DNA from: an uncultured Candidatus Saccharibacteria bacterium
GTDB taxonomy: Bacteria > Patescibacteriota > Minisyncoccia > Minisyncoccales > Minisyncoccaceae
Length of the DNA: 64,000 nucleotides
NCBI GenBank assembly: GCA_965230985.1
Contig: OZ246399.1
Coordinates: 46,564 to 110,563, forward strand
Direction: 5' to 3'
Position 1 is the stretch's first letter. The number at the start of each line of letters is the position of its first letter. A program made the translations under genes and the position numbers. A model generated the notes under the pieces. That model saw only the letters and a list, made by a program, of their open reading frames with translations, was not told the DNA's origin and did no database searches. Below, one piece after another: positions 2,838 to 61,958 of this stretch.

Positions 2838-3836
2838 TTACTTTCCAATTTTCTTCGCTAATTCAACTAATCTGCAAGAATAGGCCCACTCATTATCATA
2901 CCAAGCCATAAGCTTAACCATATTTCCATTAACTTTAGTATATTCTGGGTCAAAAATTGAAGAAAAAGAATTGCCTTTAAAATCAGAAGAAACCAAAGGT
3001 TCTTTTTCAACAAAGAAAACTCCTTTCATTTCCCCTTTGTTTGAATATTTATCAAAAGCTGCATTCACTTCTTCGACTGTGGTTTCTTTTTTAATCTCAC
3101 AAACTAAATCAACTAAAGAAACGACTGGTGTTGGAACTCTCACCGCGATCCCGTCCATTTTTCCTTTAACTCCTGGAACTACTTTCCCTATCGCTTTAGC
3201 TGCTCCGGTTGTCGTAGGAACAATATTCTCAGCAGCGGCCCTAGCCCTTCTTAAATCTTTGTGTGGCAGATCTAAAAGATTTTGATCATTAGTGTATGAA
3301 TGGATGGTAGTCATAAAACCCTTGACGATTCCGAATTCAGCTTCAAGTATTTTAACTACTGGCGCCAAACAATTAGTCGTGCAAGAACCCATGTCTATTA
3401 TGCTTTCATTCTTGTATTCATCAGCATTAATTCCTAACAGATAAGAAGGAATGTCATCATCTTTAGCAGGAGCAGAAATTATAACTTTTTTAGCTCCAGC
3501 AGTAATATGCTTAGTTAAACCAATTCTATCTCTAAATACTCCCGTACATTCTAAAACAACATCGATTTTTAAATCTTTCCAAGGAAGCTTTTCTGGATCT
3601 TTTTCGGCTAACATTAATATTTTTTTTCCATTAACAACCATATAATCTCCTTCGAGTTTGACTTCGCCATCAAAAACTCCATATGAAGTATCGTATTTAA
3701 ATAAATGAGCCAATGTCTTGTTGTCTGCTAAATCATTAATAGCGACAATCTCAATATCTAAATTTTCCTTAATTGCTGCTCTTAAAGAACATCTTCCTAT
3801 TCTCCCGAAGCCATTGATTGCAATTTTTGTTGCCAT
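2838..3836 (-). CDS. gap: Glyceraldehyde-3-phosphate dehydrogenase
   Basis: INGFGRIGR Rossmann start, active site SCTTNCLAP, WYDNEW near the C-terminus. Confidence 0.95.
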   Translation of the reverse strand: MATKIAINGFGRIGRCSLRAAIKENLDIEIVAINDLADNKTLAHLFKYDTSYGVFDGEVKLEGDYMVVNGKKILMLAEKDPEKLPWKDLKIDVVLECTGVFRDRIGLTKHITAGAKKVIISAPAKDDDIPSYLLGINADEYKNESIIDMGSCTTNCLAPVVKILEAEFGIVKGFMTTIHSYTNDQNLLDLPHKDLRRARAAAENIVPTTTGAAKAIGKVVPGVKGKMDGIAVRVPTPVVSLVDLVCEIKKETTVEEVNAAFDKYSNKGEMKGVFFVEKEPLVSSDFKGNSFSSIFDPEYTKVNGNMVKLMAWYDNEWAYSCRLVELAKKIGK

Positions 3837-15665: not shown

Positions 15666-17309
15666 CTATAGATGAGTTAATTTTCCTTGTACTATTAAAG
15701 TTAAAATTAATCTTAATACTGTATTAATAAGCTCATCTTTAGTCATTTCATTTAACGGTTTACTTATAGTTATCGGTCCAAGCTGTTGAGTAGTTGTAGT
15801 CGTTGGGGTGGTTGTAGTAGTGGTAGTTGGAGTAGTTGTAGTCGTTGGGGTGGTTGTAGTAGTGGTAGTTGGAGTAGTTGTAGTCGTTGGGGTGGTTGTA
15901 GTAGATCCTCCACTAGAACCTGAACCACTTCCTCCGCCATAAGAAATTTCAAAAGGAGAAATTGCAAGAGATGTGCTAGCATTTGAATAAACATCAGTAA
16001 CGATAATGCTGCAATTGCTGTATCTTGCTGGACTCATAGAAACAAAAGTAATGGTATTGTTTCCGGCTGTCGCTGATGTTGTTGCACTACTACATGCTCC
16101 GCTATAAGCGATTGTACCAGCTTCAGTAGCGCTAAATACATAGCTCGGGGTTAGCGTATTTGCTGTTCCAACTGCAGTAACCTGAGCTAAAACAGGGGCA
16201 AGATTGTCAGTAATGGTTTTAGCTGTCGAAGCATCTGCATTGGTGGGAACATCAGTTACTGTTGCGGCAGGATTTAAAGTATCTCCACTAGCAACAGTTG
16301 TACTTGCACCCAATGTAACTGTTAAAACTGTATTGCTAACAGTCCAACCTACGGTTACGCTATCAAAAGTATGACTACCACTTAACCCTAAGTCGGAATC
16401 TAAATGAGCCTTAGAATCAACCCTAACTGTGGCTGTAGCTATTGGTTCACTAAAAGTCAAAACTAATTTATCAGTACCATCAATAGTTGTATTACTGTTG
16501 CTATCGGTCCAAGTAACGGTTAATACTTTCGGACCAACATTATCAGTAATAGTTTTGGCTGATGAAGCATCTGCAACACCTGCGATATCAGTTACTGTTG
16601 CGGCAGGATTTAAAGTATCTCCACTAGCAACAGTTGTTCCTGTTCCTAAAGTTATTGTTAAAATTTTGCCTGTAGCATCCCAAGAAGCAACAACCGCTGC
16701 TCCACCAATTGTATGTCCACCGCTTAATCCAATATCTGTATTTAAATTAGCAACTGAATCAGTCCTTACTGTTGCTGGATCTATTTTTTCACTAAAAGTT
16801 AAAACTAAAGTATCTGTAGCATCAATCTTTGTACTGCTATTTGTATCAGTCCAAACAACAGTATTAAGAGTAGGAGCAACAGTATCGGCAGCAGGAATAG
16901 CTACTGGCGCGAGAGTTAAATCTCCTGCTCCCCCAGCATCGGTAACAGTATCATCTGGATCGCAGGTATCAGCCGCGGCGACAGTTGCGTCAGTACCCAA
17001 TGTAACCGTTAAAATAGTATTAGTTGGTCCATTCCAAGCAATGGCTAATCCTGCAGCTGACGTACCGAAGGTATGAGCACTTAGACCTAAATCACTATCT
17101 AATTGAGCCAAGCGCACGGTTGCTGTAGCCATAGCTTCACTAAAAGTGAAAGCTATCGTGTCCCCTGTATTATAAGTACCACTGCCGTCAATATCGTTCC
17201 AAACAATAGTATTAAGAGTCGGCTCTCCAGCAGCGAATACTGTAGACAATCCTGTAATCACCATTGTTATAGCAATTATCAGTCCGAATATTTTAAATTT
17301 TGAATTCAT
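15666..17309 (-). CDS. Secreted repeat protein: three roughly 112-aa Ig-like repeats, a Thr/Pro linker and the conserved C-terminal helix motif
   Basis: Signal peptide, three repeats of (TLNTVVWTD...LTFSE...TVTLG...GDTLNPAATVTD), a TTTTPTTTTT linker, and the C-terminus KPLNEMTKDELINTVLRLILTLIVQGKLTHL. Confidence 0.7.
   Translation of the reverse strand: MNSKFKIFGLIIAITMVITGLSTVFAAGEPTLNTIVWNDIDGSGTYNTGDTIAFTFSEAMATATVRLAQLDSDLGLSAHTFGTSAAGLAIAWNGPTNTILTVTLGTDATVAAADTCDPDDTVTDAGGAGDLTLAPVAIPAADTVAPTLNTVVWTDTNSSTKIDATDTLVLTFSEKIDPATVRTDSVANLNTDIGLSGGHTIGGAAVVASWDATGKILTITLGTGTTVASGDTLNPAATVTDIAGVADASSAKTITDNVGPKVLTVTWTDSNSNTTIDGTDKLVLTFSEPIATATVRVDSKAHLDSDLGLSGSHTFDSVTVGWTVSNTVLTVTLGASTTVASGDTLNPAATVTDVPTNADASTAKTITDNLAPVLAQVTAVGTANTLTPSYVFSATEAGTIAYSGACSSATTSATAGNNTITFVSMSPARYSNCSIIVTDVYSNASTSLAISPFEISYGGGSGSGSSGGSTTTTPTTTTTPTTTTTTTPTTTTTPTTTTTTTPTTTTTQQLGPITISKPLNEMTKDELINTVLRLILTLIVQGKLTHL
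15792..15904. repeat. 42-bp tandem repeat, about 2.7 copies, encoding the Thr/Pro linker
   Basis: The unit AGTTGTAGTCGTTGGGGTGGTTGTAGTAGTGGTAGTTGGAGT repeats head to tail, identical by eye. Confidence 0.85.
16197..17222. repeat. Three diverged intragenic repeats of about 335 bp (protein-domain repeats)
   Basis: For example ACTGTTGCGGCAGGATTTAAAGTATCTCCACTAGCAACAGTTGT occurs near both 16258 and 16593. Confidence 0.7.
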
Positions 17310-18230: not shown

Positions 18231-21200
18231 TTAGTAGGTTAGAGTATTTCCGTTAACAGGATAAGAATCTGCCTGAGTCTTGTAAGAGGCTAAACCGCCA
18301 GATGCAAGAGGTGTGTAATTCCAGTCTAATCCACCAACAGTTGATGTTAAAGGACCCTTTGCACCAGGAATAGAGGCGCTAAATCTTACGTTTCCACTAG
18401 TTACACCTGTCTTAACAGCTGTTGTGTCAGCCTTTACTGTAATGGTCATTGTTTGACCAGCAGTAATGCTTGGAGCAACTGATAAAGCAGTGTCGCCAGT
18501 ATCACCCTGTGTAGAATTGAAGTGTACTCTGTTGTTCCAGATAGTTACAGTCTTGTCCTGACCAATAGCGGGAGAAGTACTAAATACTATTGAAGGATCG
18601 TCATCACCGGCGCAAGCACTAATTGTGTCACCAGTAATGCTTAAGATTGTAGCTGTAGCTGTTACAGCTGAACCATCATAGAATGTTAGAGTATCACCAA
18701 CTGCCCATTTGTCAAATTCGTCTTGAGAAATAGCAGCTAACTCATTAGCTTGTGTATTATTAGCACCAGAACATACTGTTACTGTTACACCACTAATGGT
18801 TGTGGCACCGCCAGCACCATCATCGGTTGTACCAGCAGCAGATGTGTTAGCAACCTCAGCTAACATATTGCTACCATTCCAAATAGACATCTTTGTGACG
18901 TATCTGAAAGGAGAGTTATCTCCACCCTTCTCAACAGTCAAGCTGTCAAAAGTCATATCTCTACTTCCAGCAGCCTTAATGTCGAACTTAGCAACTTCTT
19001 CATATGAATTAGTACTGCCAGGGCTAACTTTGCTGTCTGCAGCTAAAGTAATAGTTGGTTCAACTTCTTCGAACCTCATAATGTTACCAACTAAAGCGTT
19101 AGCAATACTTGCGTTAGCAAATTTAGCAATACCATCATCAGCATCGATAGTAACATTAGCTCCGTCTAATACTATAACGGCTCCACTATTAGCAGTGTAA
19201 GCAGTTGTTACTACGTGCCATCCTGTTGAAGCTGAATTATCTGTACCATCTACGTCACCGTAGAAGTATACAACATCACCAACAGCTAAGGCATTGTTTG
19301 AATCTGTATCAGCATCGATTTCAACAGATGTAGGTGTTAACATTGTTACAATTTGTCCAGCTGTCCATTTTGTAATAGTAGCTCCACCATTTAATCCCAA
19401 ACCATTATCTGTTAAGCCTTGACCACCACCACCGGGTTGTGTTGTAACCATGTAGTAGCCAGGTGTTGTGTTTGTACCAGAAGCAGCTGTGGTTGTGAAG
19501 TAAATAATATTACCAACTGCGATAGCTTCTGAGCCATCATCGGCAGACGCTGTATAAGATGTACCTGTAACAGTGTCTTGAACTATAGCACCAGAACCAG
19601 AACCGATAGCATTCAATGTTCCGAATCCGATTGTTCCTAGCGTACCAGCTGTTAATGTACCAATATTTGTTGTATCAGCAGCGACAGTTAATACCTTAGA
19701 ACCATAAGCAGGAACGATTATTTCACTACCAGAAGCAAATGTGAATACTGCTGTTCCAGCAGTTACTGCAGCAGTTGGATCTGAAGCTAAACCTGTTCCT
19801 AAAAGTTTGACTTGAGCAATGTTACCATCACCCTTAATTGATCTTATTTCTAAACGATCTATTTTCATGTCTTCAACTGTAGCAGCTAACTTTACTTTAG
19901 CTAATTCAACACCAGCTAAGCCAGTTGTTAAGAATTGAGCTGAAGCTGCACCAGATGTTTCCATAGCAACAGTCAATGTACCACCTTCAACTATAGCAAT
20001 AGTTTGACCTGTGATACCAGCAGCAGCTGAAGGTCCAGCAGCAGTAGCGCTTGAAGTTGCTCCTGTTCCTGAAACACCATTTTGAAGAATCTTCGTTACT
20101 AGTGTGTCAGCAGAACCACCATCGGCAGCAGCTGTTGTTATATCAATGTATACATCAATTTGTGCAGTTGTATTTGCTGCAATGTTCAATTCTCCAGATA
20201 CTGTAAATGCATTTGCAGTAGCTCCGTCAATTACTGGAGATGTTACAGCTGATCCAATTTGTGTGCCATCAGCTTTCTTTAGTTTCAAATTCTTGAAACT
20301 TGCATCTACATCAGCAGCGTCAGTACCAGTTATAGCGATACCAATACTTGATACGTTAACACCCTCTGTTGAGTTTGTTTGTAATAAGTATGAACCGATC
20401 TTAACTTCTGATTGACCTTCTACTTTTGTACTGCTACCTAAAGAACCATTCTTTACTACAGTCAATGTACCAGCAGAAGCGCTCAATTCATTACCTGTAA
20501 TATATGCAGAGGCTGAATATGTAGCGTATGCATTGCTAGTTAATTTCTTGTAATAAATATCTGAAATTCTTCCATAAATAGTATCAGTTGCATCCATTGC
20601 GCTACCTGTGTCTACGACAAGGCTGATCTTCTTTGTTGTACCAGCAGGAATTGTGTAGTAAGTGCTCAATGTGTAAATATTTGCAGCTGTACCAGCGGCT
20701 GTATTAGCAACTAAACCAGTAGATGTAGGAGAAGCAGACCACAATGTCTGACCGTCTTCAGTTACTAATCTTACTGTTCCAGCAAGCTCATCATTTGCTA
20801 ATCCTGAACCATTGATATTAATAAATAATTTCTGAATTTCGAGAGCCTCGCCTCTAGACTCAAAATTAAATGTTGCAATGGTTGCAGTAGATGCACCAAT
20901 GCTGATTGTTCCAGAAGGAGATGTTGTAGCTTTTGAAACATACAAACTTCCAGAAGCAATAGTCATGTGGTTGAATCCAGCATTACCAGTAGCGATATCA
21001 CCGATTGGGAAGCTAGAATCGACAGAAGCTCCAGCAGTAGGAATAACATTTAATCCTGTAGAAGCTCCAGTGGCTACAACATCGTAGTCGTTCTGGATGA
21101 TGAATTGAGCGGTTCTTGAAGAACCGTTAACAACATCTACTTTAACTGATAGATCTTTTGTTAAACCTTTTGCAATCTTATAAGGAGCAGCTGTTAGATC

Positions 21201-22385
21201 AAATGTTACATATTTATTAGTTGCAGAAGCAACAGTAGATAATACTGTTCCATCTGGAGCAACTAATTTAATGTTTGTAATATCTGCATCAGCAACTGTT
21301 CCGTTCTGATAAATCTTTAAAGATTTTAAATACATGTCTTCATTGGCACCAGCAACGAAACTGAATCTCTGAATTTCGTATCCAGTTGTTCCAATGTCCT
21401 TAGAAACAGTAGCTGTTGTCAAAGATTTGACATCGGCTGTTAATGTTCCCAAGGTTGCGGTTGTGTCAACCATAGAGAAAGTATTACCGATTAGAGGTAA
21501 TCCAGTAGGTGTTCCTGACATTGCTGTCAAGTTAGCACCAACTGTTCCTGCTAATCCGTTAACACCACTTACCATGTTGAACTGAACCTGAATTACTTTT
21601 GTTGTTCCGGCAGGAACTGTAATTGGGTCATTAGCGAAAGTTACTGTAGCTACGCCATTAGCGAAAGTTACAATATTTCCATGCCTTACACCGTTTTCAT
21701 CAGCAACTACTACTCCAGCAACATTTGTGTCTATTGAAAGACCTGTTTTCTGGACTGTTAAACTTGTAACAGTTTGAGCTGTAGCTCCGGCTGAAACATT
21801 AATCTTTAATACTGGGTTGTAAGCTGAAGCTTCACCTAATGTACCAGAAGGCTGACTAGCAGCTAAAGATACAGTGTAGGCTCCTGTAGCAGGAGTTGTG
21901 GTTGTAGTAGTTGTTGAACCACTAGCAATCATAGCATTAGCCTTTGCTCTTGAAGCTGTTCCGAAGAATCCTGTTCCTGCGGCTAAGCCGTAAGGAGTTA
22001 GAACTTCAGAAGCATACTTATTTTGGAATTTTACTACTGCAGCTTTTGTCATGGCACCAAAGTAAGTTGTTTCACTTCCTTTGTTTCCGACAGAAGTTGC
22101 TGTGTCTGAATTTAATAGAATCTGTAGGTATTTTACGTTGCTACCTGTAGAACCTTGCGCTAAGTTAGTAGTAAATGTAAAACCAGCAGGAATGCCAGTT
22201 ATTGTTCCAGTTCCTGTTTGTGTGCCTGTCTGTGAACTACCAAGTAATTGGACGATCAAGGCCATAAGACCTGTAGAATCACATTCACTTAATGTAGTTA
22301 AAGAGCAAGCAGCAAAAGCTGGACTTACTACTACTGATAGAGTCAAGACTATACCAGCAACAATACCGAATTTTTTTGTACTCAT
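18231..22385 (-). CDS. Giant (1384 aa) Ala/Thr/Gly/Val-rich surface protein with an N-terminal peptidoglycan-binding domain; candidate S-layer or cell-envelope protein
   Basis: Signal peptide ending in AFA. PG_binding_1-like segment (GSNVKYLQILL...FGAMTKAAVVKFQNKY...LTP). The remainder is low in charged residues and looks beta-rich. Confidence 0.7.
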   Translation of the reverse strand: MSTKKFGIVAGIVLTLSVVVSPAFAACSLTTLSECDSTGLMALIVQLLGSSQTGTQTGTGTITGIPAGFTFTTNLAQGSTGSNVKYLQILLNSDTATSVGNKGSETTYFGAMTKAAVVKFQNKYASEVLTPYGLAAGTGFFGTASRAKANAMIASGSTTTTTTTPATGAYTVSLAASQPSGTLGEASAYNPVLKINVSAGATAQTVTSLTVQKTGLSIDTNVAGVVVADENGVRHGNIVTFANGVATVTFANDPITVPAGTTKVIQVQFNMVSGVNGLAGTVGANLTAMSGTPTGLPLIGNTFSMVDTTATLGTLTADVKSLTTATVSKDIGTTGYEIQRFSFVAGANEDMYLKSLKIYQNGTVADADITNIKLVAPDGTVLSTVASATNKYVTFDLTAAPYKIAKGLTKDLSVKVDVVNGSSRTAQFIIQNDYDVVATGASTGLNVIPTAGASVDSSFPIGDIATGNAGFNHMTIASGSLYVSKATTSPSGTISIGASTATIATFNFESRGEALEIQKLFININGSGLANDELAGTVRLVTEDGQTLWSASPTSTGLVANTAAGTAANIYTLSTYYTIPAGTTKKISLVVDTGSAMDATDTIYGRISDIYYKKLTSNAYATYSASAYITGNELSASAGTLTVVKNGSLGSSTKVEGQSEVKIGSYLLQTNSTEGVNVSSIGIAITGTDAADVDASFKNLKLKKADGTQIGSAVTSPVIDGATANAFTVSGELNIAANTTAQIDVYIDITTAAADGGSADTLVTKILQNGVSGTGATSSATAAGPSAAAGITGQTIAIVEGGTLTVAMETSGAASAQFLTTGLAGVELAKVKLAATVEDMKIDRLEIRSIKGDGNIAQVKLLGTGLASDPTAAVTAGTAVFTFASGSEIIVPAYGSKVLTVAADTTNIGTLTAGTLGTIGFGTLNAIGSGSGAIVQDTVTGTSYTASADDGSEAIAVGNIIYFTTTAASGTNTTPGYYMVTTQPGGGGQGLTDNGLGLNGGATITKWTAGQIVTMLTPTSVEIDADTDSNNALAVGDVVYFYGDVDGTDNSASTGWHVVTTAYTANSGAVIVLDGANVTIDADDGIAKFANASIANALVGNIMRFEEVEPTITLAADSKVSPGSTNSYEEVAKFDIKAAGSRDMTFDSLTVEKGGDNSPFRYVTKMSIWNGSNMLAEVANTSAAGTTDDGAGGATTISGVTVTVCSGANNTQANELAAISQDEFDKWAVGDTLTFYDGSAVTATATILSITGDTISACAGDDDPSIVFSTSPAIGQDKTVTIWNNRVHFNSTQGDTGDTALSVAPSITAGQTMTITVKADTTAVKTGVTSGNVRFSASIPGAKGPLTSTVGGLDWNYTPLASGGLASYKTQADSYPVNGNTLTY

Positions 22386-22668: not shown

Positions 22669-23421
22669 TTATTCAGTTGGTTGGATCTGATACAATATTT
22701 CTATTGCTTCACTGTACTTCGAAACGTCAAAATTCTCCTTTGCTTGTTGTAGGAGACTCTTCTGGTCTATTGTTAAATTGTTGATGTTAGCTTCAAATTC
22801 TTTAATTTCACTTTCGGCAAGAATCTTATAGAAAGTTTGATAATCTTCACTCTCATTACTCATGATTGATGCATTAGTTGTTTCTTCGATCTTTGAAATT
22901 TTAGAAACAATACTTTGAACCAATTCTGCTTTCTGACTCTCCGGAAGTTTTGATAGTTGACTAGACGCAACTGACAAAGCTTTTTGCACTTCAACTATTC
23001 CGGCAGCTAATTTCTTTCCCTGATTTTCGCTTACTTTAGAAATCCTGTCAAGTTCACTTAATCTTTGATCTGCTTGTTCAACTTTAGCAATAGCCTGAGC
23101 CTCGGGTGATAACAAGGAAATCCTCACTGATTCATATGCTTGTTTCAAACTGTATAATCTGTCTCCTGGTAAAGTTCCTTGGGCAGTAATCATGGCGAAT
23201 CCAAAAACAGCAACAATTAAACTTGATAACACTGGCATCAATACTTTAGGAGTTTCAAAGACTGTTCCAATAGTATTAAAAAATGAAGCAAAGATTGTAG
23301 CTGTTGAATTCTCTTCAAACTGCTTAGAAAGAATATTTCTCTTACTAAAAGAAACCCACTCTGAATTGGGTTTCACTGCTTTCAATGCTTCTAAGTTTTT
23401 TATAATCTTTATTTCCTCCAT
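22669..23421 (-). CDS. Single-pass membrane protein with a coiled-coil ectodomain (DUF5667-like), possible anti-sigma partner
   Basis: Cytoplasmic N-terminus, one TM (VLMPVLSSLIVAVFGFAMI), then a helical domain. It is preceded by an ECF-type promoter. The family assignment is tentative. Confidence 0.5.
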   Translation of the reverse strand: MEEIKIIKNLEALKAVKPNSEWVSFSKRNILSKQFEENSTATIFASFFNTIGTVFETPKVLMPVLSSLIVAVFGFAMITAQGTLPGDRLYSLKQAYESVRISLLSPEAQAIAKVEQADQRLSELDRISKVSENQGKKLAAGIVEVQKALSVASSQLSKLPESQKAELVQSIVSKISKIEETTNASIMSNESEDYQTFYKILAESEIKEFEANINNLTIDQKSLLQQAKENFDVSKYSEAIEILYQIQPTE

Positions 23422-23438
23422 AGTGTCTCTTACTAATG

Positions 23439-23466
23439 TAGACGTAAAAACAAGAGTTTTGTTACA
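23439..23466 (-). promoter_or_regulatory. ECF-sigma-type promoter TGTAAC-N16-CGTCTA (copy X)
   Basis: Minus strand reads TGTAACAAAACTCTTGTTTTTACGTCTA. It lies 18 nt upstream of the ATG at 23421. Confidence 0.6.
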
Positions 23467-23473
23467 GTTTGAG

Positions 23474-23704
23474 CTATTTAAGCCATTCCCCTAAAGATAT
23501 TCCAGATTGTTTGACTATTGCCTTGAATGTTCTAGGTTTTAAGGTTTTAGATCCATGAAAGGGAACCTGGACGATTCTTGGCTCATGATTACGGTTACCA
23601 GTATAGAAATAATGACTTCCTTTGGTGTAAGAATAGATAAAACCGTTTTCCTTTAAAAAGTCCTTTACTTCTGAAAATGTCCAGTTAAATATTCCTTTTG
23701 TCAT
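23474..23704 (-). CDS. hicA: HicA-family toxin
   Basis: GSHYFYTG...IVQVPFHGSKTLKPRTFKAIVKQSGI. I prefer the internal start MTKGIF at 23704; the tracked start at 23746 overlaps hicB. Confidence 0.8.
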   Translation of the reverse strand: MTKGIFNWTFSEVKDFLKENGFIYSYTKGSHYFYTGNRNHEPRIVQVPFHGSKTLKPRTFKAIVKQSGISLGEWLK

Positions 23705-23708
23705 AATT

Positions 23709-24041
23709 CTAGGCAAATACTGGAGTATTAAACGGAGCGTGCCCAAAGCTATAAACCTGTTTTAACTTTGAATCCTTTTCCGTCTTATCTTTTTCTAATC
23801 CTTTCCACATTTCCTCATATTCCTTATCAGGCTTTTGATTCAAAGGCATGGGACGCATTTTTAATCTTTGAGCAGTCTCAACATATCCTTCTATCGCTTG
23901 AAACAAAGAAGCCATTACCTCTACAGGATTATCCCCTTCTTCCACAATATTAAATTCTAATGCTACTCCATACCAAACACTGTCCTCCTTAAAGATTATA
24001 TATCTTACAGAGCCTTTATTTAATGTGTTTTTGTATTTCAT
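23709..24041 (-). CDS. hicB: HicB-family antitoxin
   Basis: WYGVALEFNIVEEGDNPVEVMASLFQAIEGYVE is HicB-like, and the gene is directly upstream of hicA. Confidence 0.7.
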   Translation of the reverse strand: MKYKNTLNKGSVRYIIFKEDSVWYGVALEFNIVEEGDNPVEVMASLFQAIEGYVETAQRLKMRPMPLNQKPDKEYEEMWKGLEKDKTEKDSKLKQVYSFGHAPFNTPVFA

Positions 24042-24110
24042 ATTTGTAGGTAGATTATACTAAAAATACTGCTAAAAGTCAATAAATCAATTAAAACTTC
24101 CTATTTAGTT

Positions 24111-24138
24111 TAGACGTAAAAACTAAACTTTTGTTACA
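24111..24138 (-). promoter_or_regulatory. ECF-sigma-type promoter TGTAAC-N16-CGTCTA (copy Y)
   Basis: Minus strand reads TGTAACAAAAGTTTAGTTTTTACGTCTA. The -35 and -10 blocks and the spacing match copy X. Confidence 0.6.
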
Positions 24139-24149
24139 TTTTTAAGATA

Positions 24150-24176
24150 TAAAAAACAAGGATTCTTTTCCTTGTC
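24150..24176 (-). terminator. Intrinsic terminator after the sigma factor gene
   Basis: ACAAGGA / TCCTTGT stem followed by a T-run on the minus strand. Confidence 0.65.
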
Positions 24177-24178
24177 TT

Positions 24179-24685
24179 TTATGCTTCTAGTATTTTCTTT
24201 AATTGCTTCATTCCTCTGGAAACTAATACTCTAGTTGCTCCTTGGGATTTATTCAGTGCTTTAGCCACTTCAGAATATGGCTGTTGCTCAATGTAATACA
24301 TGGAAACAGCAATTCGGCAATCTTCGCTCAATTGTCCCAAAGCAGCAGTAACCATTCTCATGTCATCGTTCTGGACAGCTTGTCCAGCAAGGTCTTGGCT
24401 TTTGTCCAGAATGTTTTCAGGATTGTCCAGAATAACTGGATTCTGGTCTTTGGTCCTATAATGATCAATAATCAGGTTCTTAGCGACGCGAAACAAAAAG
24501 CCTGATGGACTCTTCACTTCTTTATCAAAAGAAATCTCTTTCCAGAGCCTGGTAAAAGTTTCCGAAGTGATGTCTTGAGCTAATGCTTCATTGCTAACCT
24601 TAAAAAAAACAAAGCGATAGACTTTATCTATATGCTCGTCATATATCTGTGAAAAAAATTGTTCTTTAAATTCAGTCGATTGCAT
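24179..24685 (-). CDS. Sigma-70 family (ECF-like, regions 2 and 4) RNA polymerase sigma factor
   Basis: 168 aa. Region 2 is VYRFVFFKV..AQDITSETFTRLW...FLFRVAKNLIIDHYR. Region 4 has the HTH YSEVAKALNKSQGATRVLVSRGMKQL. Confidence 0.85.
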   Translation of the reverse strand: MQSTEFKEQFFSQIYDEHIDKVYRFVFFKVSNEALAQDITSETFTRLWKEISFDKEVKSPSGFLFRVAKNLIIDHYRTKDQNPVILDNPENILDKSQDLAGQAVQNDDMRMVTAALGQLSEDCRIAVSMYYIEQQPYSEVAKALNKSQGATRVLVSRGMKQLKKILEA

Positions 24686-24705
24686 TGTTCTTTTTAAACT
24701 ATTAA

Positions 24706-24862
24706 TGTCCAGAACCTTATCGTTCGTGTCCTAAACTGTCCTGATTGATTGTCCACAATTGTCCACGATTGTCCAGAAGTTGTCCACATTGTCCAGAACC
24801 GTGTCCAGAATGTCCAGAATAATGTCCACATTGTCCAGAACCGTGTCCAGAATGTCCAGAAT
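24706..24862. repeat. Array of 14 same-orientation TGTCCA(C/G)A-type repeats with spacing of about 10.5 bp
   Basis: TGTCC cores start at 24706, 24727, 24737, 24750, 24760, 24770, 24781, 24790, 24802, 24811, 24823, 24832, 24844 and 24853. The last 84 bp is a 42-bp unit repeated twice. Confidence 0.9.
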
Positions 24863-24871
24863 AACTTTCTA

Positions 24872-25546
24872 TCAGGACTCGCTAATTTTATAGGCCGTCA
24901 TCTTGCCTCCACCCATACAAGAAATAATTTTCATTTCCTTTAATCCTTTCAGTTCTCTTCTGATGGTTCGGGGATTCATTTCTGGGAAACATTCACTAAT
25001 TTGATTGGCCTTTAATTGACCCTTACTTTGAAGAATCTCTAAAACCTTTAATTGAACTGATGAAAGCTCTTCATAATTAAGATGTTTGACTTCCCTTTTT
25101 ACCATTTCTACTTTTTTATCTTCTTTTGCCTTTTCTTCCTTTATATTCCCCATGTTAGCAAAAACAGCAACCGATTCTTCTTTTTGTATCTCAACAGCGA
25201 TAGGTTTTTTTACTTCCTTGTCCTTTATTACACTTAGACCAAGAGAATCTTTCAAAACTTCGTATTCCCTCTCCAAAACTTCAAAGTTTCTTTCAGCTAC
25301 CCATTCCTGTTCTTTAGCAATGCTAAAATAGGTCTTAATCAGTTCTATTTTTGATAATACTTTATCCAAATACTGCTCCTTTTCTTTTGGAGTTGATGAG
25401 AGAGATTTACCCTTTACAAGGTTCGAGAAAAACATTACATCAAGGCCCTCTTTACGAATCGCAAACTTAAGGGGCTCCTCTTTAGGAAAGAGGTCGGTCA
25501 CCTTGTATAAGGCGTTTGTCAATTTAATGATGTTTTCCTCTGTCAT
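24872..25546 (-). CDS. Putative DNA-binding protein with a C-terminal winged-helix HTH
   Basis: The C-terminus LKVLEILQSKGQLKANQISECFPEMNPRTIRRELKGLKEMKII is wHTH-like. The N-terminus LYKVTDLFPKEEPLK resembles four-helix-bundle (S23-IVS-like) proteins. I prefer the start at M13. Confidence 0.55.
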   Translation of the reverse strand: MTEENIIKLTNALYKVTDLFPKEEPLKFAIRKEGLDVMFFSNLVKGKSLSSTPKEKEQYLDKVLSKIELIKTYFSIAKEQEWVAERNFEVLEREYEVLKDSLGLSVIKDKEVKKPIAVEIQKEESVAVFANMGNIKEEKAKEDKKVEMVKREVKHLNYEELSSVQLKVLEILQSKGQLKANQISECFPEMNPRTIRRELKGLKEMKIISCMGGGKMTAYKISES

Positions 25547-25619
25547 AGTCCATATTATATGGTAATGAAAAAGAAAAGTCAAACCAAATAAAAAACGGCC
25601 TAATTATTTAAAAAAGTCG

Positions 25620-26280: not shown

Positions 26281-26556
26281 CTATTTATATAAATTATTAT
26301 GATTCCCTAACGTTAAAAAAACAACAACATTTCCGTCGTCTCTAAAAATAGCACGCCAATCACCTGTTATATTTATACTTCTGAGTTGAGAATACTTTCC
26401 CCTTAAAGAATGATTATTAAGCAAAGGATTGAATTTATTAACCAAAAAAAGATTAAATTTGTCTTCGAAATTTCTTTTAATTAATAATGGCGAAGAATTA
26501 AAACGTTTAATAAAATTTTTATTAAATTTGATTTCCATACTTCCTGTTTTTGTCAT
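26281..26556 (-). CDS. RelE/YafQ-type mRNA interferase toxin
   Basis: LNNHSLRGKYSQLRSINITGDWRAIFRDDGNVVVFLTLGNHNNLY fits the RelE/YafQ pattern. Confidence 0.7.
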   Translation of the reverse strand: MTKTGSMEIKFNKNFIKRFNSSPLLIKRNFEDKFNLFLVNKFNPLLNNHSLRGKYSQLRSINITGDWRAIFRDDGNVVVFLTLGNHNNLYK

Positions 26557-26815
26557 TCAGCCATTTTATAGCATCTTTAGCATTATTAAAAGATGGGGAA
26601 ATATTTCCCTCCTTAGCTTCTTTATCAGCCTCCTTGAGCTCATTAATTAGCCAATCTGATGGTTCTTCTAAAGAAATATGTATTTCTTTTTCTATTATAA
26701 ATTTCCTTAAATAAACATTTAAAACATCACTTAAATTAAGACCCATCCGATTAGCTATTTTTTGAGCTTCGCCCTTTACCTTTTTATCTGTCTTAAAATT
26801 AACTATTGTGGTCAT
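26522..26815 (-). CDS. RelB/DinJ-type antitoxin
   Basis: MTTIVNFKTDKKVKGEAQKIANRMGLNLSDVLNVYLRKF is a DinJ-like RHH. I prefer the start at M19 of the tracked ORF. Confidence 0.7.
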   Translation of the reverse strand: MTTIVNFKTDKKVKGEAQKIANRMGLNLSDVLNVYLRKFIIEKEIHISLEEPSDWLINELKEADKEAKEGNISPSFNNAKDAIKWLNDKNRKYGNQI

Positions 26816-26834
26816 ACGCTTTATATATACTTTA

Positions 26835-26851
26835 TATATACATTGTATATA
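26835..26851. promoter_or_regulatory. Palindrome TATATACA-T-TGTATATA overlapping a TTGACA-16-TACAAT promoter of the dinJ-like operon
   Basis: 8-bp arms read directly. The -35 lies at 26864-26869 on the minus strand. Confidence 0.5.
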
Positions 26852-26956
26852 TAAATAAAAATTTGTCAAGCTGTAAAAGAAAACGGCCTAAGCCGTTTTA
26901 AATATCTTTATTGATAATTTTTCTTAAATATTATTAAGATATTCAATATCTAAAAA

Positions 26957-27304
26957 TTATATCAACCCAAAACTTATCTCTAATGCTCTATCAACTTTTT
27001 GCATCGATTTTAAATTTAACTCTCCAATTTTTTTAACAAGCCTTTTCTTATCTATTGTTCTTACTTGATTTAAAATAATAACTGATTTCTCGGATAAACC
27101 TCCTTCAGGGGGGATAATTAAAACTTCTGTTGGATAAATAGTATCATCAAAGTGAGAACCAATAGCTGCAACAATCGTTACTGGACTATAATGATTACCA
27201 ATATTATTTTGTAAAATAAGAGCTGGTCTAGTTTTACTAATTTCTGAACCAACAGTTGGATCAAAATTAACAATATATATTTCTCCTCTCTTAGGTGTTA
27301 ACAT
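26957..27304 (-). CDS. PemK/MazF-family toxin (second copy in the window)
   Basis: GEIYIVNFDPTVGSEISKTRPALILQNN...VRTIDKKRL. Confidence 0.85.
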   Translation of the reverse strand: MLTPKRGEIYIVNFDPTVGSEISKTRPALILQNNIGNHYSPVTIVAAIGSHFDDTIYPTEVLIIPPEGGLSEKSVIILNQVRTIDKKRLVKKIGELNLKSMQKVDRALEISFGLI

Positions 27305-27546
27305 GCTTCGTCAATCAAAAACCAATCTTCAGCAACCGATAAATCTCTCTTAGAACGAATAATAGCCCCTTCGCGAAGTTGTTTTTTTAAATTAGCTTGT
27401 CCAACCCCTTCAACATAGAAACGCACTGCCTGATCAACAAATGAACTTCTGGTTCCCTTTTGAGCAATATTATCAAGAAGTTGAATAGTTTTATTAGGCA
27501 AAGTAATATTTATCCTTTTATATTTTGTAGATGTGTTTATTTTCAT
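27298..27546 (-). CDS. Ribbon-helix-helix (CopG/MazE-like) antitoxin
   Basis: RINITLPNKTIQLLDNIAQKGTRSSFVDQAVRFYV. It overlaps mazF by 7 nt. I prefer the start MKINTS at 27546. Confidence 0.7.
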   Translation of the reverse strand: MKINTSTKYKRINITLPNKTIQLLDNIAQKGTRSSFVDQAVRFYVEGVGQANLKKQLREGAIIRSKRDLSVAEDWFLIDEAC

Positions 27547-27552
27547 ATTTTC

Positions 27553-27581
27553 ATGATACACACTATCAATGTGTAAGTCAA
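27553..27581 (-). promoter_or_regulatory. Promoter TTGACT-17-TATCAT placed 6 nt before the antitoxin ATG, which predicts a leaderless mRNA
   Basis: Hexamers read on the minus strand. No SD lies between the -10 and the ATG. Confidence 0.5.
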
Positions 27582-27619
27582 GGGAGTGCACTTAAGAGAC
27601 TGTGCACCCCCACAATAAA

Positions 27620-60323: not shown

Positions 60324-61958
60324 CTAATAACAACCTCTTGCAGTTATGTACGCGTGACAATTATGATTCGGATAATCCATACAACCTTCATATATCAGAC
60401 TGCCACAATTATCACATGCAGTACTACCACATCCAGTACAACAAGCCCAATTATAATTATCACCCGTCATATAAGGCATAGACTCAATAGCATGATTACT
60501 CCAACTATGAGATCCAGCAGTATATGGAATACTATACCCAGCATGCGAATTATGAGTAGTAGAACCACAATAACCACCATATATTGATCGATCAGCAGTT
60601 GTAGTCCAATTTTGATATTGTGTCCATCCAGAAGGACAATCTGGGTAAAGACCATCAACCTGAGTACCAATATCAGTAGTAACCGACCAACTGAACTTAC
60701 AAACATAACACGAACTAACCCAAGTTAACGTTCCGCCAGCACTAGTACATTCATTAAGAGTATGGACATTATTGCATATAATAGGCGGACTTAACTTTAA
60801 GGCAGTACAAGTCTCACTAGTCGTTCCATCGTTCACTCCAGCACAAGTCCAAGTCCAGGGACCGGAACCAGAAACAGAAGAAGCAATTCCAGCAGAACAG
60901 AGATCTGTTGTCGGAACAGAAGAATAATACGAACCATCAGCTGAACCACAGACACCATCTACAGATTTATTAGCAGTACAAGTCTCACTAGTCGTTCCAT
61001 CGTTCACTCCAGCACAAGTCCAAGTCCAGGGACCGGAACCAGAAACAGAAGAAGCAATTCCAGCAGAACAGAGATCTGTTGTCGGAGTAGTATATGAATT
61101 GGTGCCATCAGCTGAACCACAGACACCATCTTCAGTTTTGTTAACGGTACAGGTAGGAATATCCCCAACATATTTTCCTTCACAAGTCCAAGTCCAGGGA
61201 CCGGAACCAGAAACAGAAGAAGCAATTCCAGCAGAACAGAGATCTGTTGTCGGAGTAGTATATGAATTGGTGCCATCAGCTGAACCACAGACACCATTTA
61301 AGGCTCTGTAGGCAGAACAAAAAGCTCTATCTCCACGATCTCCGTCACAAGTCCAAGAGACTGAGGCTCCTTCTTCTGGAAAAACAGGAGTTGTACCATC
61401 AAGCGTTCCTGCCGAACAAAAACTTGTAGCGGTAATAGTAGGCCAATCAGTAGCGCTAGAATTGTTATATCCATTTGTAGAAGTATATTCAGAAAAATCA
61501 CCGCAAGCTCCGTTAACAATAGTACCGATAGTATAATTATCAGTATCACAATTGTATGCATATATATCATTAGGAGCAGGAGTAGAGAGTTTGGCGTAAA
61601 TTTGGCAACTCTTTCCATCTGTTGAAATATAATAATAATAGGTTTCGGGATTAGGATCTGTTGGAAGATTTGTTAAATATTTTTTTAAAAAATCTTCAAC
61701 AACAGAAGAGCAACGAGTAGCCACGTCTCCTCCTCCAATTGTACATCCATTTTCGCCTGTAATAGGCTTGAGGGCATAATTTTCAGAAGAATAAGTAGTA
61801 ACGGCATTGGCTAACAATTCAATGTCTGATTTCCTTTTAACATCTTTTCCAGCATTAACAGAATTATTTAATTGAACAGCTATAAAACCAGAAAGAATAG
61901 AAATAACAACTATTACTATTAGTAACTCAATCAAAGTAAAAGCTTTTTGTTGCGACAT
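60324..61958 (-). CDS. Type IV pilin-like protein with 3-4 Cys-containing roughly 57-aa repeats and a Cys/Trp/His-rich C-terminal domain
   Basis: Prepilin motif QKAFTLIELLIVIVVISIL. Repeats read GVCGSADG...LCSAGIASSVSGSGPWTWTC.G...C. Confidence 0.8.
   Translation of the reverse strand: MSQQKAFTLIELLIVIVVISILSGFIAVQLNNSVNAGKDVKRKSDIELLANAVTTYSSENYALKPITGENGCTIGGGDVATRCSSVVEDFLKKYLTNLPTDPNPETYYYYISTDGKSCQIYAKLSTPAPNDIYAYNCDTDNYTIGTIVNGACGDFSEYTSTNGYNNSSATDWPTITATSFCSAGTLDGTTPVFPEEGASVSWTCDGDRGDRAFCSAYRALNGVCGSADGTNSYTTPTTDLCSAGIASSVSGSGPWTWTCEGKYVGDIPTCTVNKTEDGVCGSADGTNSYTTPTTDLCSAGIASSVSGSGPWTWTCAGVNDGTTSETCTANKSVDGVCGSADGSYYSSVPTTDLCSAGIASSVSGSGPWTWTCAGVNDGTTSETCTALKLSPPIICNNVHTLNECTSAGGTLTWVSSCYVCKFSWSVTTDIGTQVDGLYPDCPSGWTQYQNWTTTADRSIYGGYCGSTTHNSHAGYSIPYTAGSHSWSNHAIESMPYMTGDNYNWACCTGCGSTACDNCGSLIYEGCMDYPNHNCHAYITARGCY
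60802..61314. repeat. 171-bp tandem repeat, three copies, with a mosaic identity pattern
   Basis: Copies start at 60802, 60973 and 61144. Copies 1 and 2 share an identical first 113 nt or so. Copies 2 and 3 share an identical last 120 nt or so. Both comparisons are by eye. Confidence 0.85.

Follow-up and report, generated by a model that had tools for sequence, protein, structure and literature searches.

The locus and its promoters

Within the window, meaning the whole 64-kb stretch of DNA that was analysed, four genes form a module in the order four-helix-bundle/winged-helix protein, ECF sigma factor, DUF5667 protein and large surface protein, an arrangement which is deeply conserved. The features of the module are listed in Table 1; the sigma gene (24179–24685, minus strand) begins and the winged-helix gene ends (24872) where an earlier note on this DNA had placed them, and both calls were correct. 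The genes neighbouring the repeat array that lies in this module encode a 172-aa protein without assignment, the winged-helix protein, the ECF sigma factor, HicBA and the DUF5667 protein. The locus is chromosomal, occurring on contigs of 211–656 kb with gene order conserved across species. The host is an ultra-small CPR/Paceibacterota bacterium.

Table 1. Coordinates of genes and cis elements of the module in the window.
Feature	Position	Strand	Basis or detail
Surface protein, 1384 aa, conserved fourth module gene	18231–22385	-	Comparison with distant loci
DUF5667 membrane protein, 250 aa, conserved third module gene	22669–23421	-	Domain search, promoter position
ECF-type promoter copy 2, TGTAAC-N16-CGTCTA	23439–23466	-	18 nt upstream of the DUF5667 start codon
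ECF-type promoter copy 1, TGTAAC-N16-CGTCTA	24111–24138	-	Motif
Intrinsic-terminator-like hairpin, ACAAGGA-AAAGAA-TCCTTGT then TTTTTT	24150–24175	-	Directly 3' of the sigma stop codon
ECF-type sigma factor gene, 168 aa, sigma-70 regions 2 and 4	24179–24685	-	Domain searches
Four further sites in sigma2–sigma4 linker codons	24369–24432	-	CDS +257, +278, +300, inverted +308
GGACA array, 14 same-orientation sites, (T/A)T(C/G)TGGACA on the gene strand	24706–24861	-	Sequence reading, phasing, conservation
Winged-helix gene, 224 aa, proposed array binder	24872–25546	-	Domain, homologue and structure comparison
Winged-helix gene promoter, sigma-70-type TTGACT-N17-TATAAT	25554–25582	-	Promoter scan

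The start of the winged-helix gene is most likely the ATG at 25546, as in all homologues. This codon lies 7 nt after the -10 hexamer of the promoter, so that the mRNA is probably leaderless; promoters of the same TTGACT/TATAAT type were also found upstream of the homologues in L031–L039 and L162/L163. No terminator was found between the winged-helix and sigma genes.

A different motif accompanies the genes downstream. In nearly all loci a single strict match to TGTAA(C/T)-N16-CGTC occurs upstream of the DUF5667 gene and downstream of the sigma gene, and the predicted promoter of the sigma factor is TGTAAC-N16-CGTCT, distinct from the GGACA motif. The DUF5667 gene is the probable target of this ECF promoter, and its product may be, by inference, an anti-sigma factor. 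At positions homologous to that of the 1384-aa surface protein, distant loci carry large PG_binding_1 proteins. An ECF-type -35 (..AAC) / -10 (CGT..) pair was looked for upstream of the sigma gene and none was present in the array; with the ECF promoter motif located elsewhere in the loci, the idea that the array consists of ECF -35 elements was rejected.

A phased array conserved in relatives

The gap between the winged-helix and sigma genes (186 bp, 24686–24871) is filled by the array. Its cores, which read TGTCC on the plus strand and GGACA on the gene strand, start at 24706, 24727, 24737, 24750, 24760, 24770 and 24781, followed by 24790, 24802, 24811, 24823, 24832, 24844 and 24853, giving spacings of 21, 10, 13, 10, 10, 11, 9, 12, 9, 12, 9, 12 and 9 bp. 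Re-reading of the sequence agreed exactly with the earlier note, both in the 14 same-orientation copies and in the listed spacings. The TGTCCA(C/G)A form it had given for the units applies less widely: 11 of the 14 match it strictly, while TGTCCACG is found in one and degenerate forms, TGTCCTAA and TGTCCTGA, in the other two. This 8-mer occurs 18 times in the window, compared with 1.9 ± 1.3 times in shuffled sequences; 11 of these occurrences fall in the 186-bp gap, and the sigma coding sequence contains three more. A duplicated 42-bp unit, also reported before, was recovered in the distal part of the array by Tandem Repeats Finder (24760–24864, 2.5 copies, 92% matches).

Phasing over all 14 sites gave a resultant of 0.88 at 10.5 bp, where the 99.9th percentile for random phases is 0.68 for n = 14. 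The placement of the sites on one helix face, which had been proposed for the last ten intervals, is thus true of the entire array. Array and phasing were computed directly, as were the conservation, the exclusive link to the module, the DNA-level selection in the coding sequence and the differing sigma promoter motif. The array was also considered as translated sequence, its frame being open and in frame with both flanking genes in the window. In relatives this frame differs or carries stops, and its openness here is therefore a coincidence.

Arrays at the same position, between the winged-helix and sigma genes, were found in 23 species-level relatives with 4–16 GGACA sites each, a conservation that reaches down to about 41% identity of the regulator and 57% of the sigma factor. 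When seven close relatives were aligned, the TTCTGGACA cores showed no variation at all, while the spacers differed, as did the number and order of units. The best period was 10.2–10.5 bp in 21 of the 21 arrays tested (resultant 0.82–0.98, against the same null percentile of 0.68), and the histogram of spacings peaks at 9, 12, 11 and 20–21 bp. The arrays of L001 and L002 are identical, as is the part present on the cut contig L003, and all three come from separate metagenomes. The earlier note had named absence from relatives as the outcome that would tell against a function; the array is kept, and it is no neutral repeat.

Of 37 loci retrieved by way of the regulator, 35 carried the regulator–sigma gene pair, as did every distant family member that was sampled. 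Every GGACA/TGTCC cluster in the module-carrying loci falls within the module, and the same holds for the 64-kb window. The position inside the module shifts between clades: clusters are located in the gap between regulator and sigma gene, ahead of the ECF promoter (L019–L023, L035) or ahead of the regulator's promoter (L033–L039), so that a single roadblock mechanism cannot hold everywhere. The sites of these other clades take either orientation and are also found upstream of promoters, and the most distant members have three to six (A/T)AGGACA sites between the regulator and sigma genes, including inverted pairs such as TAGGACA-N6-TGTCCTA. Two family members, L022 and L165, have no GGACA cluster, which is therefore not obligatory for the module. 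In a metagenome scan with the pattern TGGACA-N3-6-TGGACA-N3-6-TGGACA, the matches listed were mostly unrelated high-GC or coding tandem repeats, and among them only L158 carried the module.

Further sites occur within the sigma gene itself. The four copies reported previously, one of them inverted, were all found (TGTCC at 24381, 24403 and 24424; inverted GGACA at 24373), together with a weaker fifth, GGGACA, at about 24333–24338. The last two of the four (+300 and inverted +308) make up the palindrome CTGGACA-AGC-TGTCCAG. Species with the array have three to six GGACA at +257 to +348 of the sigma coding sequence, with the exception of L019, which has none; species lacking the array have none or one. 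Leu-Asp pairs are encoded as CTGGAC in 35 of 42 cases in the sigma genes versus eight of 124 in the remaining ORFs of these loci, and in this window in both cases in the sigma gene (2/2) versus 0/64 in the other ORFs. The coding-sequence sites are hence written with rare codons and are under selection at the DNA level. They are in phase with the upstream array in the five closest loci tested (L001–L009), but not across the clade.

The winged-helix protein and the proposed operator

The 224-aa protein consists of an N-terminal four-helix bundle resembling Avd and the 23S-rRNA-IVS protein (residues 1–112, predicted at a pLDDT of about 90), a disordered Lys/Glu-rich linker (residues 113–154) and a C-terminal winged helix of DeoR/HTH_11 type. 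The best structural matches of the bundle by Foldseek were 2gsc and 2rld, with target-normalised TM scores of 0.73–0.83. Both crystal entries contain chains A–E, and by analogy the 224-aa protein possibly forms a pentamer. The fold of the bundle is that of this group over about 110 residues, but the curated sequence threshold is not reached: the bAvd score (PF22296) is 18.7 bits, below the Pfam cut-off of 40, and seven of 22 members match at E ≤ 0.01. The Pfam/NCBIfam matches of the protein are bAvd-like, HTH_DeoR, HTH_11 and Penicillinase_R only. With the DeoR family it has only the HTH type in common, its HTH being C-terminal and the DeoRC domain not having been found. AspA and TubR were among the weak winged-helix fold matches of the C-terminal domain. 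The family of the regulator comprises about 1,500 clusters at 50% identity, and an informal comparison of protein lengths with site counts gave no obvious correlation between linker length and number of sites.

With moderate confidence, we read the array as a DNA operator, phased to the helix, at which the neighbouring winged-helix regulator would gate expression of the sigma factor. Among the four readings offered in the earlier note this is the one favoured by comparison; those of a DnaA cluster, an iteron or centromere-like site and an RNA sponge were not supported. We infer that the winged-helix protein is the binder, that it binds as an oligomer and that it represses rather than activates. 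In support of the regulator as binder, a four-helix bundle tethered to a winged helix by a disordered linker suits multi-site binding, and the motif predicted for the sigma factor, besides which the module has no further protein that reads DNA, is not the GGACA one.

Under this operator model, one winged helix would occupy each 9-bp (T/A)T(C/G)TGGACA site, and the 21-bp unit (9 + 12) would align all sites along the same helical face. Cooperative binding of many oligomeric regulator copies would then coat or wrap roughly 150 bp before the sigma gene, and the bound regulator may also touch the extra sites in the sigma2–sigma4 linker codons. Given the regulator's own strong sigma-70-type promoter and the lack of a terminator before the sigma gene, a bound array would block read-through and local initiation. 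Binding would in this way set the amount of ECF sigma factor made, which in turn would drive the TGTAAC-N16-CGTCT promoter before the DUF5667 and surface-protein genes. A more specific version, which we put forward as tentative, is that an Avd-like core, oligomeric and perhaps pentameric, uses the winged helices tethered to it to wrap the 10.5-bp-phased array of up to 16 repeats and, with the linker-codon sites, forms a gate over an envelope ECF sigma gene.

Direct-repeat arrays coated by small autoregulating proteins are known from ParR-parC of plasmid R1, TubR-tubC and the heptads of the pSM19035 omega repressor. The present array resembles these in having at least 10 short direct repeats of one orientation near one helical turn apart, in adjoining the gene of its putative binder while overlapping the regulatory region of a downstream gene, and in cooperative coating as the likely mode of binding. 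It differs in being chromosomal and conserved across a bacterial class, with no partition NTPase, with an ECF sigma gene downstream and with extra sites in coding sequence, and its proposed binder is a winged helix fused to a four-helix bundle where the known systems have a ribbon-helix-helix protein or a bare winged-helix dimer. Phased direct repeats beside the gene of a small DNA-binding protein are thus shared with partition centromeres but a partner NTPase is not, and the resemblance is one of mode of working, not of membership.

Proteins of the OmpR/PhoB family also place winged helices head to tail on direct repeats, as in pho boxes and the ToxR heptads upstream of ctxAB, these repeats being phased at 10–11 bp upstream of the regulated gene. 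Common to both are phased direct repeats before the presumed target gene and a repeat number that varies between strains or species; the 224-aa protein, unlike OmpR/PhoB, has neither a receiver domain nor a Trans_reg_C winged helix, and the array is several-fold longer. With MecI/BlaI and ArsR/SmtB, which are structural neighbours of the C-terminal domain, the regulator shares the fold of its DNA-binding domain and, in distant family members, inverted site pairs typical of dimeric operators. Those proteins, however, bind as dimers to one or two palindromes and dimerise through a C-terminal domain, whereas here there is an N-terminal Avd/IVS-like bundle and a long direct-repeat array. For the ECF130 and ECF201 groups, Casas-Pastor et al. 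(2021, PMC7826278) describe an HTH protein encoded beside the ECF sigma gene, with a proposed role in controlling transcription of that gene. The likeness to our module lies in this neighbouring HTH gene; a repeat array is not mentioned in the paper, from which the term "tandem" is absent (PMC7826278). Apart from this remark, nothing relevant was found in the literature on the motif, on CPR sigma factors or on ECF groups in CPR.

Alternative readings and wider significance

Phasing and conservation show a function at the DNA level without naming the protein, and the array might instead be read by an unlinked global regulator or nucleoid protein or, in a weaker form of this idea, serve as phased repeats of intrinsically curved DNA. 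A core variant, TGGCCA instead of TGGACA, occurs in L031, L032 and L037, and a comparison of the GGACA/GGCCA variant with the residues of the winged-helix recognition helix and of sigma region 4 gave no correlation; since the variant tracks no residue change, the binder is not nameable by covariation, which leaves room for an unlinked protein. We nevertheless regard such a binder as unlikely. Neither in the 64-kb window nor in any module-carrying locus do clusters occur outside the module, they stay with it across very distant lineages, as a local co-inherited binder predicts, and, the sigma factor aside, the module has no conserved DNA-binding protein other than the winged-helix one.

It is improbable that the array acts as a stack of weak, overlapping sigma-70-type promoters (TGGACA-N17-GACAAT) recruiting RNA polymerase for the sigma gene. 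The promoter scan did find six TGGACA-N16/17-(G/A)ACAAT matches in the array, each at 9/12; the 21-bp unit sets GACAnn exactly 17 bp past TGGACA, and genuine promoters here are TTGACT/TATAAT-like. The -10-like reading is nonetheless lost in relatives, because the AT after GGACA is not conserved (A 40% and T 48% in clade A; A 73% and T 0% at the second position in clade B). The TGGCCA variant has two mismatches to TTGACA, inverted copies and clusters far from any start codon are found in other clades, and promoter-like matches in the region (11, versus 6.8 ± 2.5 in shuffles) are not above expectation.

Still less probable is a role in the transcript, where the UGGACA run, as an intercistronic or 5'-UTR element, would titrate or recruit an RNA-binding protein as a CsrA-like sponge or in translational control. 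The array is probably transcribed, as no terminator separates the two genes; all 14 copies have one orientation, each unit contains GGA, and copies run into the coding region of the mRNA. A 10.5-bp phase over 150 bp in 21 species would be meaningless in single-stranded RNA, however, and the sponge reading of the earlier note looks unlikely in view of this duplex-DNA phasing, a predicted fold no better than shuffles (z = -0.33, centroid unpaired) and the mixed orientation and sites upstream of the operon promoter in other clades. A search against Rfam gave no family match at E ≤ 1 except two chance matches far below the gathering scores; the GGA in hairpin loops of a structured RNA and the curated family match that mark sponges of the CsrB/RsmZ type are thus both lacking.

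Very little weight is given to readings of the array as plasmid-type iterons, as a centromere for partition or as a minisatellite that expanded neutrally. The spacing of the array does resemble that of iterons and of the parC and tubC centromeres, whose direct repeats lie one or two helical turns apart. The RepA-type iterons of P1, F and pPS10, which winged-helix domains recognise, likewise have a single orientation, and their super-period of about 21–22 bp (two turns) is comparable to the 21-bp unit found here. Against this, the array has 9-bp sites, two per 21-bp unit, it lacks an initiator gene and an AT-rich unwinding element, and none of the genes beside it is a Rep, ParA, ParM or TubZ gene; the iteron or centromere-like site suggested earlier is at odds with a locus that is chromosomal, not extrachromosomal, and of conserved synteny on the long contigs noted above. 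A minisatellite would account for the variation in unit number between species, but the cores are invariant as the spacers drift, the same array recurs in separate metagenomes (L001, L002 and, in part, L003), and phasing and codon override point to selection.

Least credible is a DnaA-box cluster (a replication origin, a datA-like titration site or a DnaA-regulated promoter), which would need this organism's DnaA to bind TGTCCAGAA with box-like affinity: only two of the 14 units are TTGTCCACA, which the earlier note gives as the actinobacterial DnaA-box variant, the other 12 have at least two mismatches to TTATCCACA (two of 14 being within one mismatch, counted from the sequence), the (C/G) position before the final A, a DnaA-critical base, is mostly G in the window's clade, where oriC/datA-type sites would conserve CCACA, cumulative GC skew is monotonic through 24.7 kb with no switch, no dnaA was among the ten window ORFs scanned, the flanking genes are a regulator and a sigma factor, and the array tracks the regulator–sigma module in dozens of species, not an origin.

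Transcription control has hardly been characterised in CPR/Patescibacteria, a group with very few regulators that accounts for much of bacterial diversity. The result obtained here is a conserved four-gene module with two cis elements, the phased GGACA array and the TGTAAC-N16-CGTCT sigma promoter. If the array is indeed a wrapped multi-site operator reaching into the coding sequence, it would be an unusual addition to the known ways of controlling alternative sigma factors and may bear on surface remodelling by these episymbionts; an oligomeric wrapping gate, if true, would represent a new architecture of sigma control in which operator sites override codon usage inside the regulated gene. 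These predictions are testable because the cultured relative Minisyncoccus archaeiphilus (L034, genome NZ_AP038758.1) has the same module, at which a TCTGGACA cluster is found.

The array and the genes around it

Direct reading of the window, which derives from a Paceibacterota/Minisyncoccales (CPR) bacterium, bears out the basic description in the earlier note. There are 14 TGTCC cores on the + strand at 24706-24857 (GGACA on the - strand, the gene strand), all in one and the same orientation, with successive spacings of 21, 10, 13, 10, 10, 11, 9, 12, 9, 12, 9, 12 and 9 bp. Together they occupy the 186-bp gap from the stop codon of the winged-helix regulator gene (24872) to the ATG of the sigma gene (24685). 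Strict matches to TGTCCA(C/G)A account for 11 of the 14 copies, another being TGTCCACG and two degenerate. This 8-mer occurs 18 times in the 64-kb window, against 1.9 expected, with 14 of the 18 found in the regulator-sigma gap or the sigma coding sequence, and the additional copies described within the latter were likewise confirmed (see table). The proposed 42-bp unit was recovered by Tandem Repeats Finder (2.5 copies, 92% matches), and the proposed helical phasing holds for all 14 sites, with a resultant of 0.88 at a 10.5-bp period compared with a 99.9th percentile of 0.68 for 14 random phases.

Features of the module and of related loci (L handles: loci of relatives or metagenome contigs)
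Feature	Locus	Position	Strand	Remarks
Regulator promoter	window	25582-25554	-	TTGACT-N17-TATAAT, near-consensus sigma-70-type; ATG 7 nt after -10 hexamer
Regulator gene	window	ATG 25546, stop 24872	-	224 aa; start as in all homologues
ECF-type sigma gene	window	24179-24685	-	168 aa; Sigma70_r2 and Sigma70_r4_2; TIGR02937, 1e-27
Further sites in sigma CDS	window	24369-24432		four copies, one inverted
Weaker further site in sigma CDS	window	near 24333
ECF promoter, copy 1	window	24138-24111	-	TGTAAC-N16-CGTCTA
ECF promoter, copy 2	window	23466-23439	-	TGTAAC-N16-CGTCTA
Cluster upstream of ECF promoter	L019-L023, L035	80-440 bp upstream
Cluster upstream of regulator promoter	L033, L034, L036, L039	40-490 bp upstream		mixed orientation
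TGGCCA-variant cluster	L031, L032, L037	within module
AACGTATTATCAAC block, with variants	L033; L034; L036; L039	~255-275; ~3805-3825; ~3620-3660; ~3625-3650
GC-rich spacer hairpin	L020; L021; L022; L023	4709-4807; 4736-4808; 4742-4829; 4733-4800
Clusters of low-GC contigs	L070; L151; L064; L090; L053	1865-2592; 2-183; 25-66; 2163-2514; 858-1429	both

The AlphaFold model of the regulator shows two confidently predicted domains, a four-helix bundle (residues 1-112) and, after it, a winged helix, joined by a Lys/Glu-rich linker (113-154) that is disordered. Structural matches to the bundle are 2gsc and 2rld of the S23/IVS-protein family (target-normalised TM scores 0.73-0.83), both of which were deposited with chains A-E. 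By structure comparison the winged helix matches DsrD, MecI/BlaI and ArsR-type repressors, with the centromere binders AspA and TubR as weaker matches, and all Pfam matches (bAvd-like, HTH_DeoR, HTH_11, Penicillinase_R) are sub-threshold. No terminator-like site was found on the gene strand between the regulator and sigma genes; directly after the stop codon of sigma comes a hairpin with a T-run.

The surroundings of the module are rich in toxin-antitoxin genes (window 26281-27591; 1094-1538 and 7140-8405 in L001 and L002, loci of the same species), comprising PemK, RelB/YafQ and two HicAB pairs, and a Fic protein is also present.

Conservation of the sites and of their phasing

A profile search with the regulator, taking one genome per species, gave 37 loci, in 35 of which an ECF sigma homologue directly follows; the next gene in most loci encodes a DUF5667 protein homologous to window 22669-23421. 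Absence of the array from relatives, which the earlier note would have taken as a refutation, was not observed: in 23 of these species the gap between the regulator and sigma genes contains 4-16 GGACA sites, down to ~41% regulator and 57% sigma identity. The sites share the orientation of the genes, save for an inverted copy or two in L015-L017 and L019. Aligning the seven closest arrays shows no variation in any TTCTGGACA core, while the arrays differ in their spacers and in how many 21-bp units they have and in what order; the site logo is (T/A)T(C/G)TGGACA. Two independent metagenome assemblies have exactly the window array, and a third contig, cut inside the array, agrees over the portion it retains; the array is thus not hypervariable within the species.

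Pooled site spacings were 9 bp (64 cases), 12 (59), 11 (38), 10 (19), 13 (10) and 20-21 (34), the alternation of 9 and 12 giving a 21-bp unit of two helical turns. When periods from 9 to 12 bp were compared in 21 arrays, the best was 10.2-10.5 bp in every one, with resultants of 0.82-0.98 over spans of 51-168 bp. That the phase is kept over 150 bp in many species, despite reshuffling of the arrays, points to a role on double-stranded DNA in which the sites all lie along one face.

The sites extend into the sigma gene: with the exception of L019, species that have the array also have 3-6 GGACA in the sigma coding sequence, at conserved positions (+257, +266, +278, +290/293, +300, +348) that fall mostly within the linker joining regions 2 and 4; array-free species have 0-1. 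Whole array units often lie within the linker DNA, such as GGACACGGTTCTGGACA in the relative L008. In the window CTG makes up 2.7% of Leu codons and GAC 23% of Asp codons, and CTGGAC is used for both Leu-Asp pairs of the sigma linker but for 0 of the 64 found in 48 other ORFs. Across 21 species it encodes 35 of 42 such pairs in sigma genes versus 8 of 124 in neighbouring ORFs. The sites in the sigma coding sequence are selected as DNA. A neutral microsatellite is excluded by the invariant cores, the retained phasing and this override of codon usage.

The window array (24686-24874) can also be read through without a stop (KVILDILDTVLDNVD...), in the frame shared by the regulator ORF, after TGA TAG, and the sigma ATG. 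This was rejected as a meaningful reading and is a coincidence, because the frame relation is lost in relatives; the similarity of its peptide to the sigma linker (NLDNLDTVLDK in L008) stems from array units within the linker DNA.

Loci with a short gap that lacks the array have GGACA/TGTCC clusters at other places in the module; one of them is L034, the cultured Minisyncoccus archaeiphilus. No module-carrying locus has such a cluster outside the module. Other clusters occur only in L040 and L041, as coding-region repeats, and these loci have only a partial regulator match. In the most distant members sampled (28-32% identity, or reached by profile search only) the gene order is regulator, sigma, a protein of 221-311 aa and, where the contig is long enough, a large surface protein. 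Four of five distinct distant members have 3-6 (A/T)AGGACA sites between regulator and sigma; some of the distant sites are paired in inverted orientation (for example TAGGACA-N6-TGTCCTA), and sites of L162/L163 adjoin the -35 box of the regulator promoter. No cluster was found in L022 and L165. The regulator family as a whole comprises 1,529 clusters at 50% identity (E<=1e-10).

In distant clades, the clusters preceding the regulator gene have the conserved AACGTATTATCAAC block immediately upstream of their first TCTGGACA; the block possibly holds a -10-like CGTA/TATTAT. In the array-free L020-L023 a different element takes the array's position, namely a GC-rich hairpin (CGCTCCGCCATCCGCC...GGCGGATGGCGGAG in L020), followed in three of the four by GATTATTATG. 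Very low-GC metagenome contigs also carry intergenic clusters of the core (TTGGACAAA in L070, L151 and L064; TTTGGACAT in L090 and L053), with no regulator or sigma homologue in these five at E<1e-4; they may represent another operator or iteron system, unrelated but with a similar core.

A candidate operator and its alternatives

The array could be taken for a set of ECF -35 boxes, but this was rejected because the ECF promoter is a different motif, downstream of sigma. Nearly all loci have a canonical TGTAA(C/T)-N16-CGTC(T), closely following sigma and closely preceding the DUF5667 gene; beyond this, the strict form matches at most once more, in three loci. No ECF promoter was found in front of the sigma gene itself. 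The window has two copies (region 23437-24138), which flank a toxin-antitoxin cassette of HicB-like and HicA genes (23474-24041); the cassette is served by a separate TTGACT-N17-TATAAT promoter. The HicBA insertion seems to have duplicated the ECF promoter, since several relatives that lack the insert (e.g., L005, L010, L011) have just one copy, immediately preceding the DUF5667 gene.

We consider it somewhat probable that the array is a DNA operator array, its predicted reader being the one conserved DNA-binding protein of the module besides sigma. Winged helices tethered flexibly to a four-helix bundle that oligomerises would be well matched to numerous sites along one face of the helix. Given a strong regulator promoter, no terminator before the array and an array end only 7-24 nt from the sigma ATG, we infer that the bound array may block read-through or local initiation. 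The regulator would thereby limit synthesis of the sigma factor, which would itself drive the DUF5667 and surface-protein genes from TGTAAC-N16-CGTCT. The operator proposed by the earlier note for the winged-helix protein thus fits as an array, while we infer which protein binds, that it does so as an oligomer, and whether it represses or activates. As cluster positions differ between clades, no single detailed mechanism can apply to all of them.

Binding by an unlinked protein is a rather unlikely alternative, kept in view because an A/C variant of the core does not covary with regulator or sigma residues and because the survey of clusters covered the window and the sampled loci. Tandem sigma-70-type promoters are improbable: the promoter scan gave six TGGACA-N16/17-(G/A)ACAAT matches, but the -10-like bases vary among relatives and total promoter-like matches do not exceed shuffles. 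Still more doubtful is the suggested RNA-level protein sponge, which leaves the phasing unexplained; the array RNA is unstructured (z = -0.33) and has no matching Rfam family, and other clades have their sites in both orientations and ahead of promoters. The suggested DnaA-box cluster has hardly any likelihood, with TTGTCCACA in only two array units, the critical C mostly G in the window's clade, no GC-skew switch at the locus and no dnaA among ten ORFs scanned. Plasmid iterons or a partition centromere, also suggested, are not supported, the context being chromosomal and syntenic and no Rep or partition NTPase having been found.

A multi-site direct-repeat operator for a winged-helix protein is already a known kind of element, and direct-repeat multi-site arrangements include ParR-parC, TubR-tubC, omega heptads, Rep iterons and pho boxes. 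What appears undescribed is the protein architecture of the regulator, an array of this length and strictness of phasing, its continuation in the codons of the regulated gene, and an ECF sigma gene in CPR bacteria as its target. A search of one paper library found nothing on the motif, the regulator family or sigma control in Paceibacteria; in the ECF reclassification paper only the HTH neighbours of groups ECF130 and ECF201 are of relevance (PMC7826278).

Tandem repeats also occur in other coding sequences of the window. ORF 60324-61958 (-; 544 aa) has a 171-bp repeat at 60802-61297 (2.9 copies, 90% matches), and ORF 15666-17309 (-) a perfect 42-bp repeat at 15788-15904 (2.8 copies, 100% matches). 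For the latter gene, which probably encodes a surface protein, the products called in L001 (533 aa) and L002 (547 aa) differ by precisely one 42-bp unit, suggesting copy-number variation between two metagenomes.
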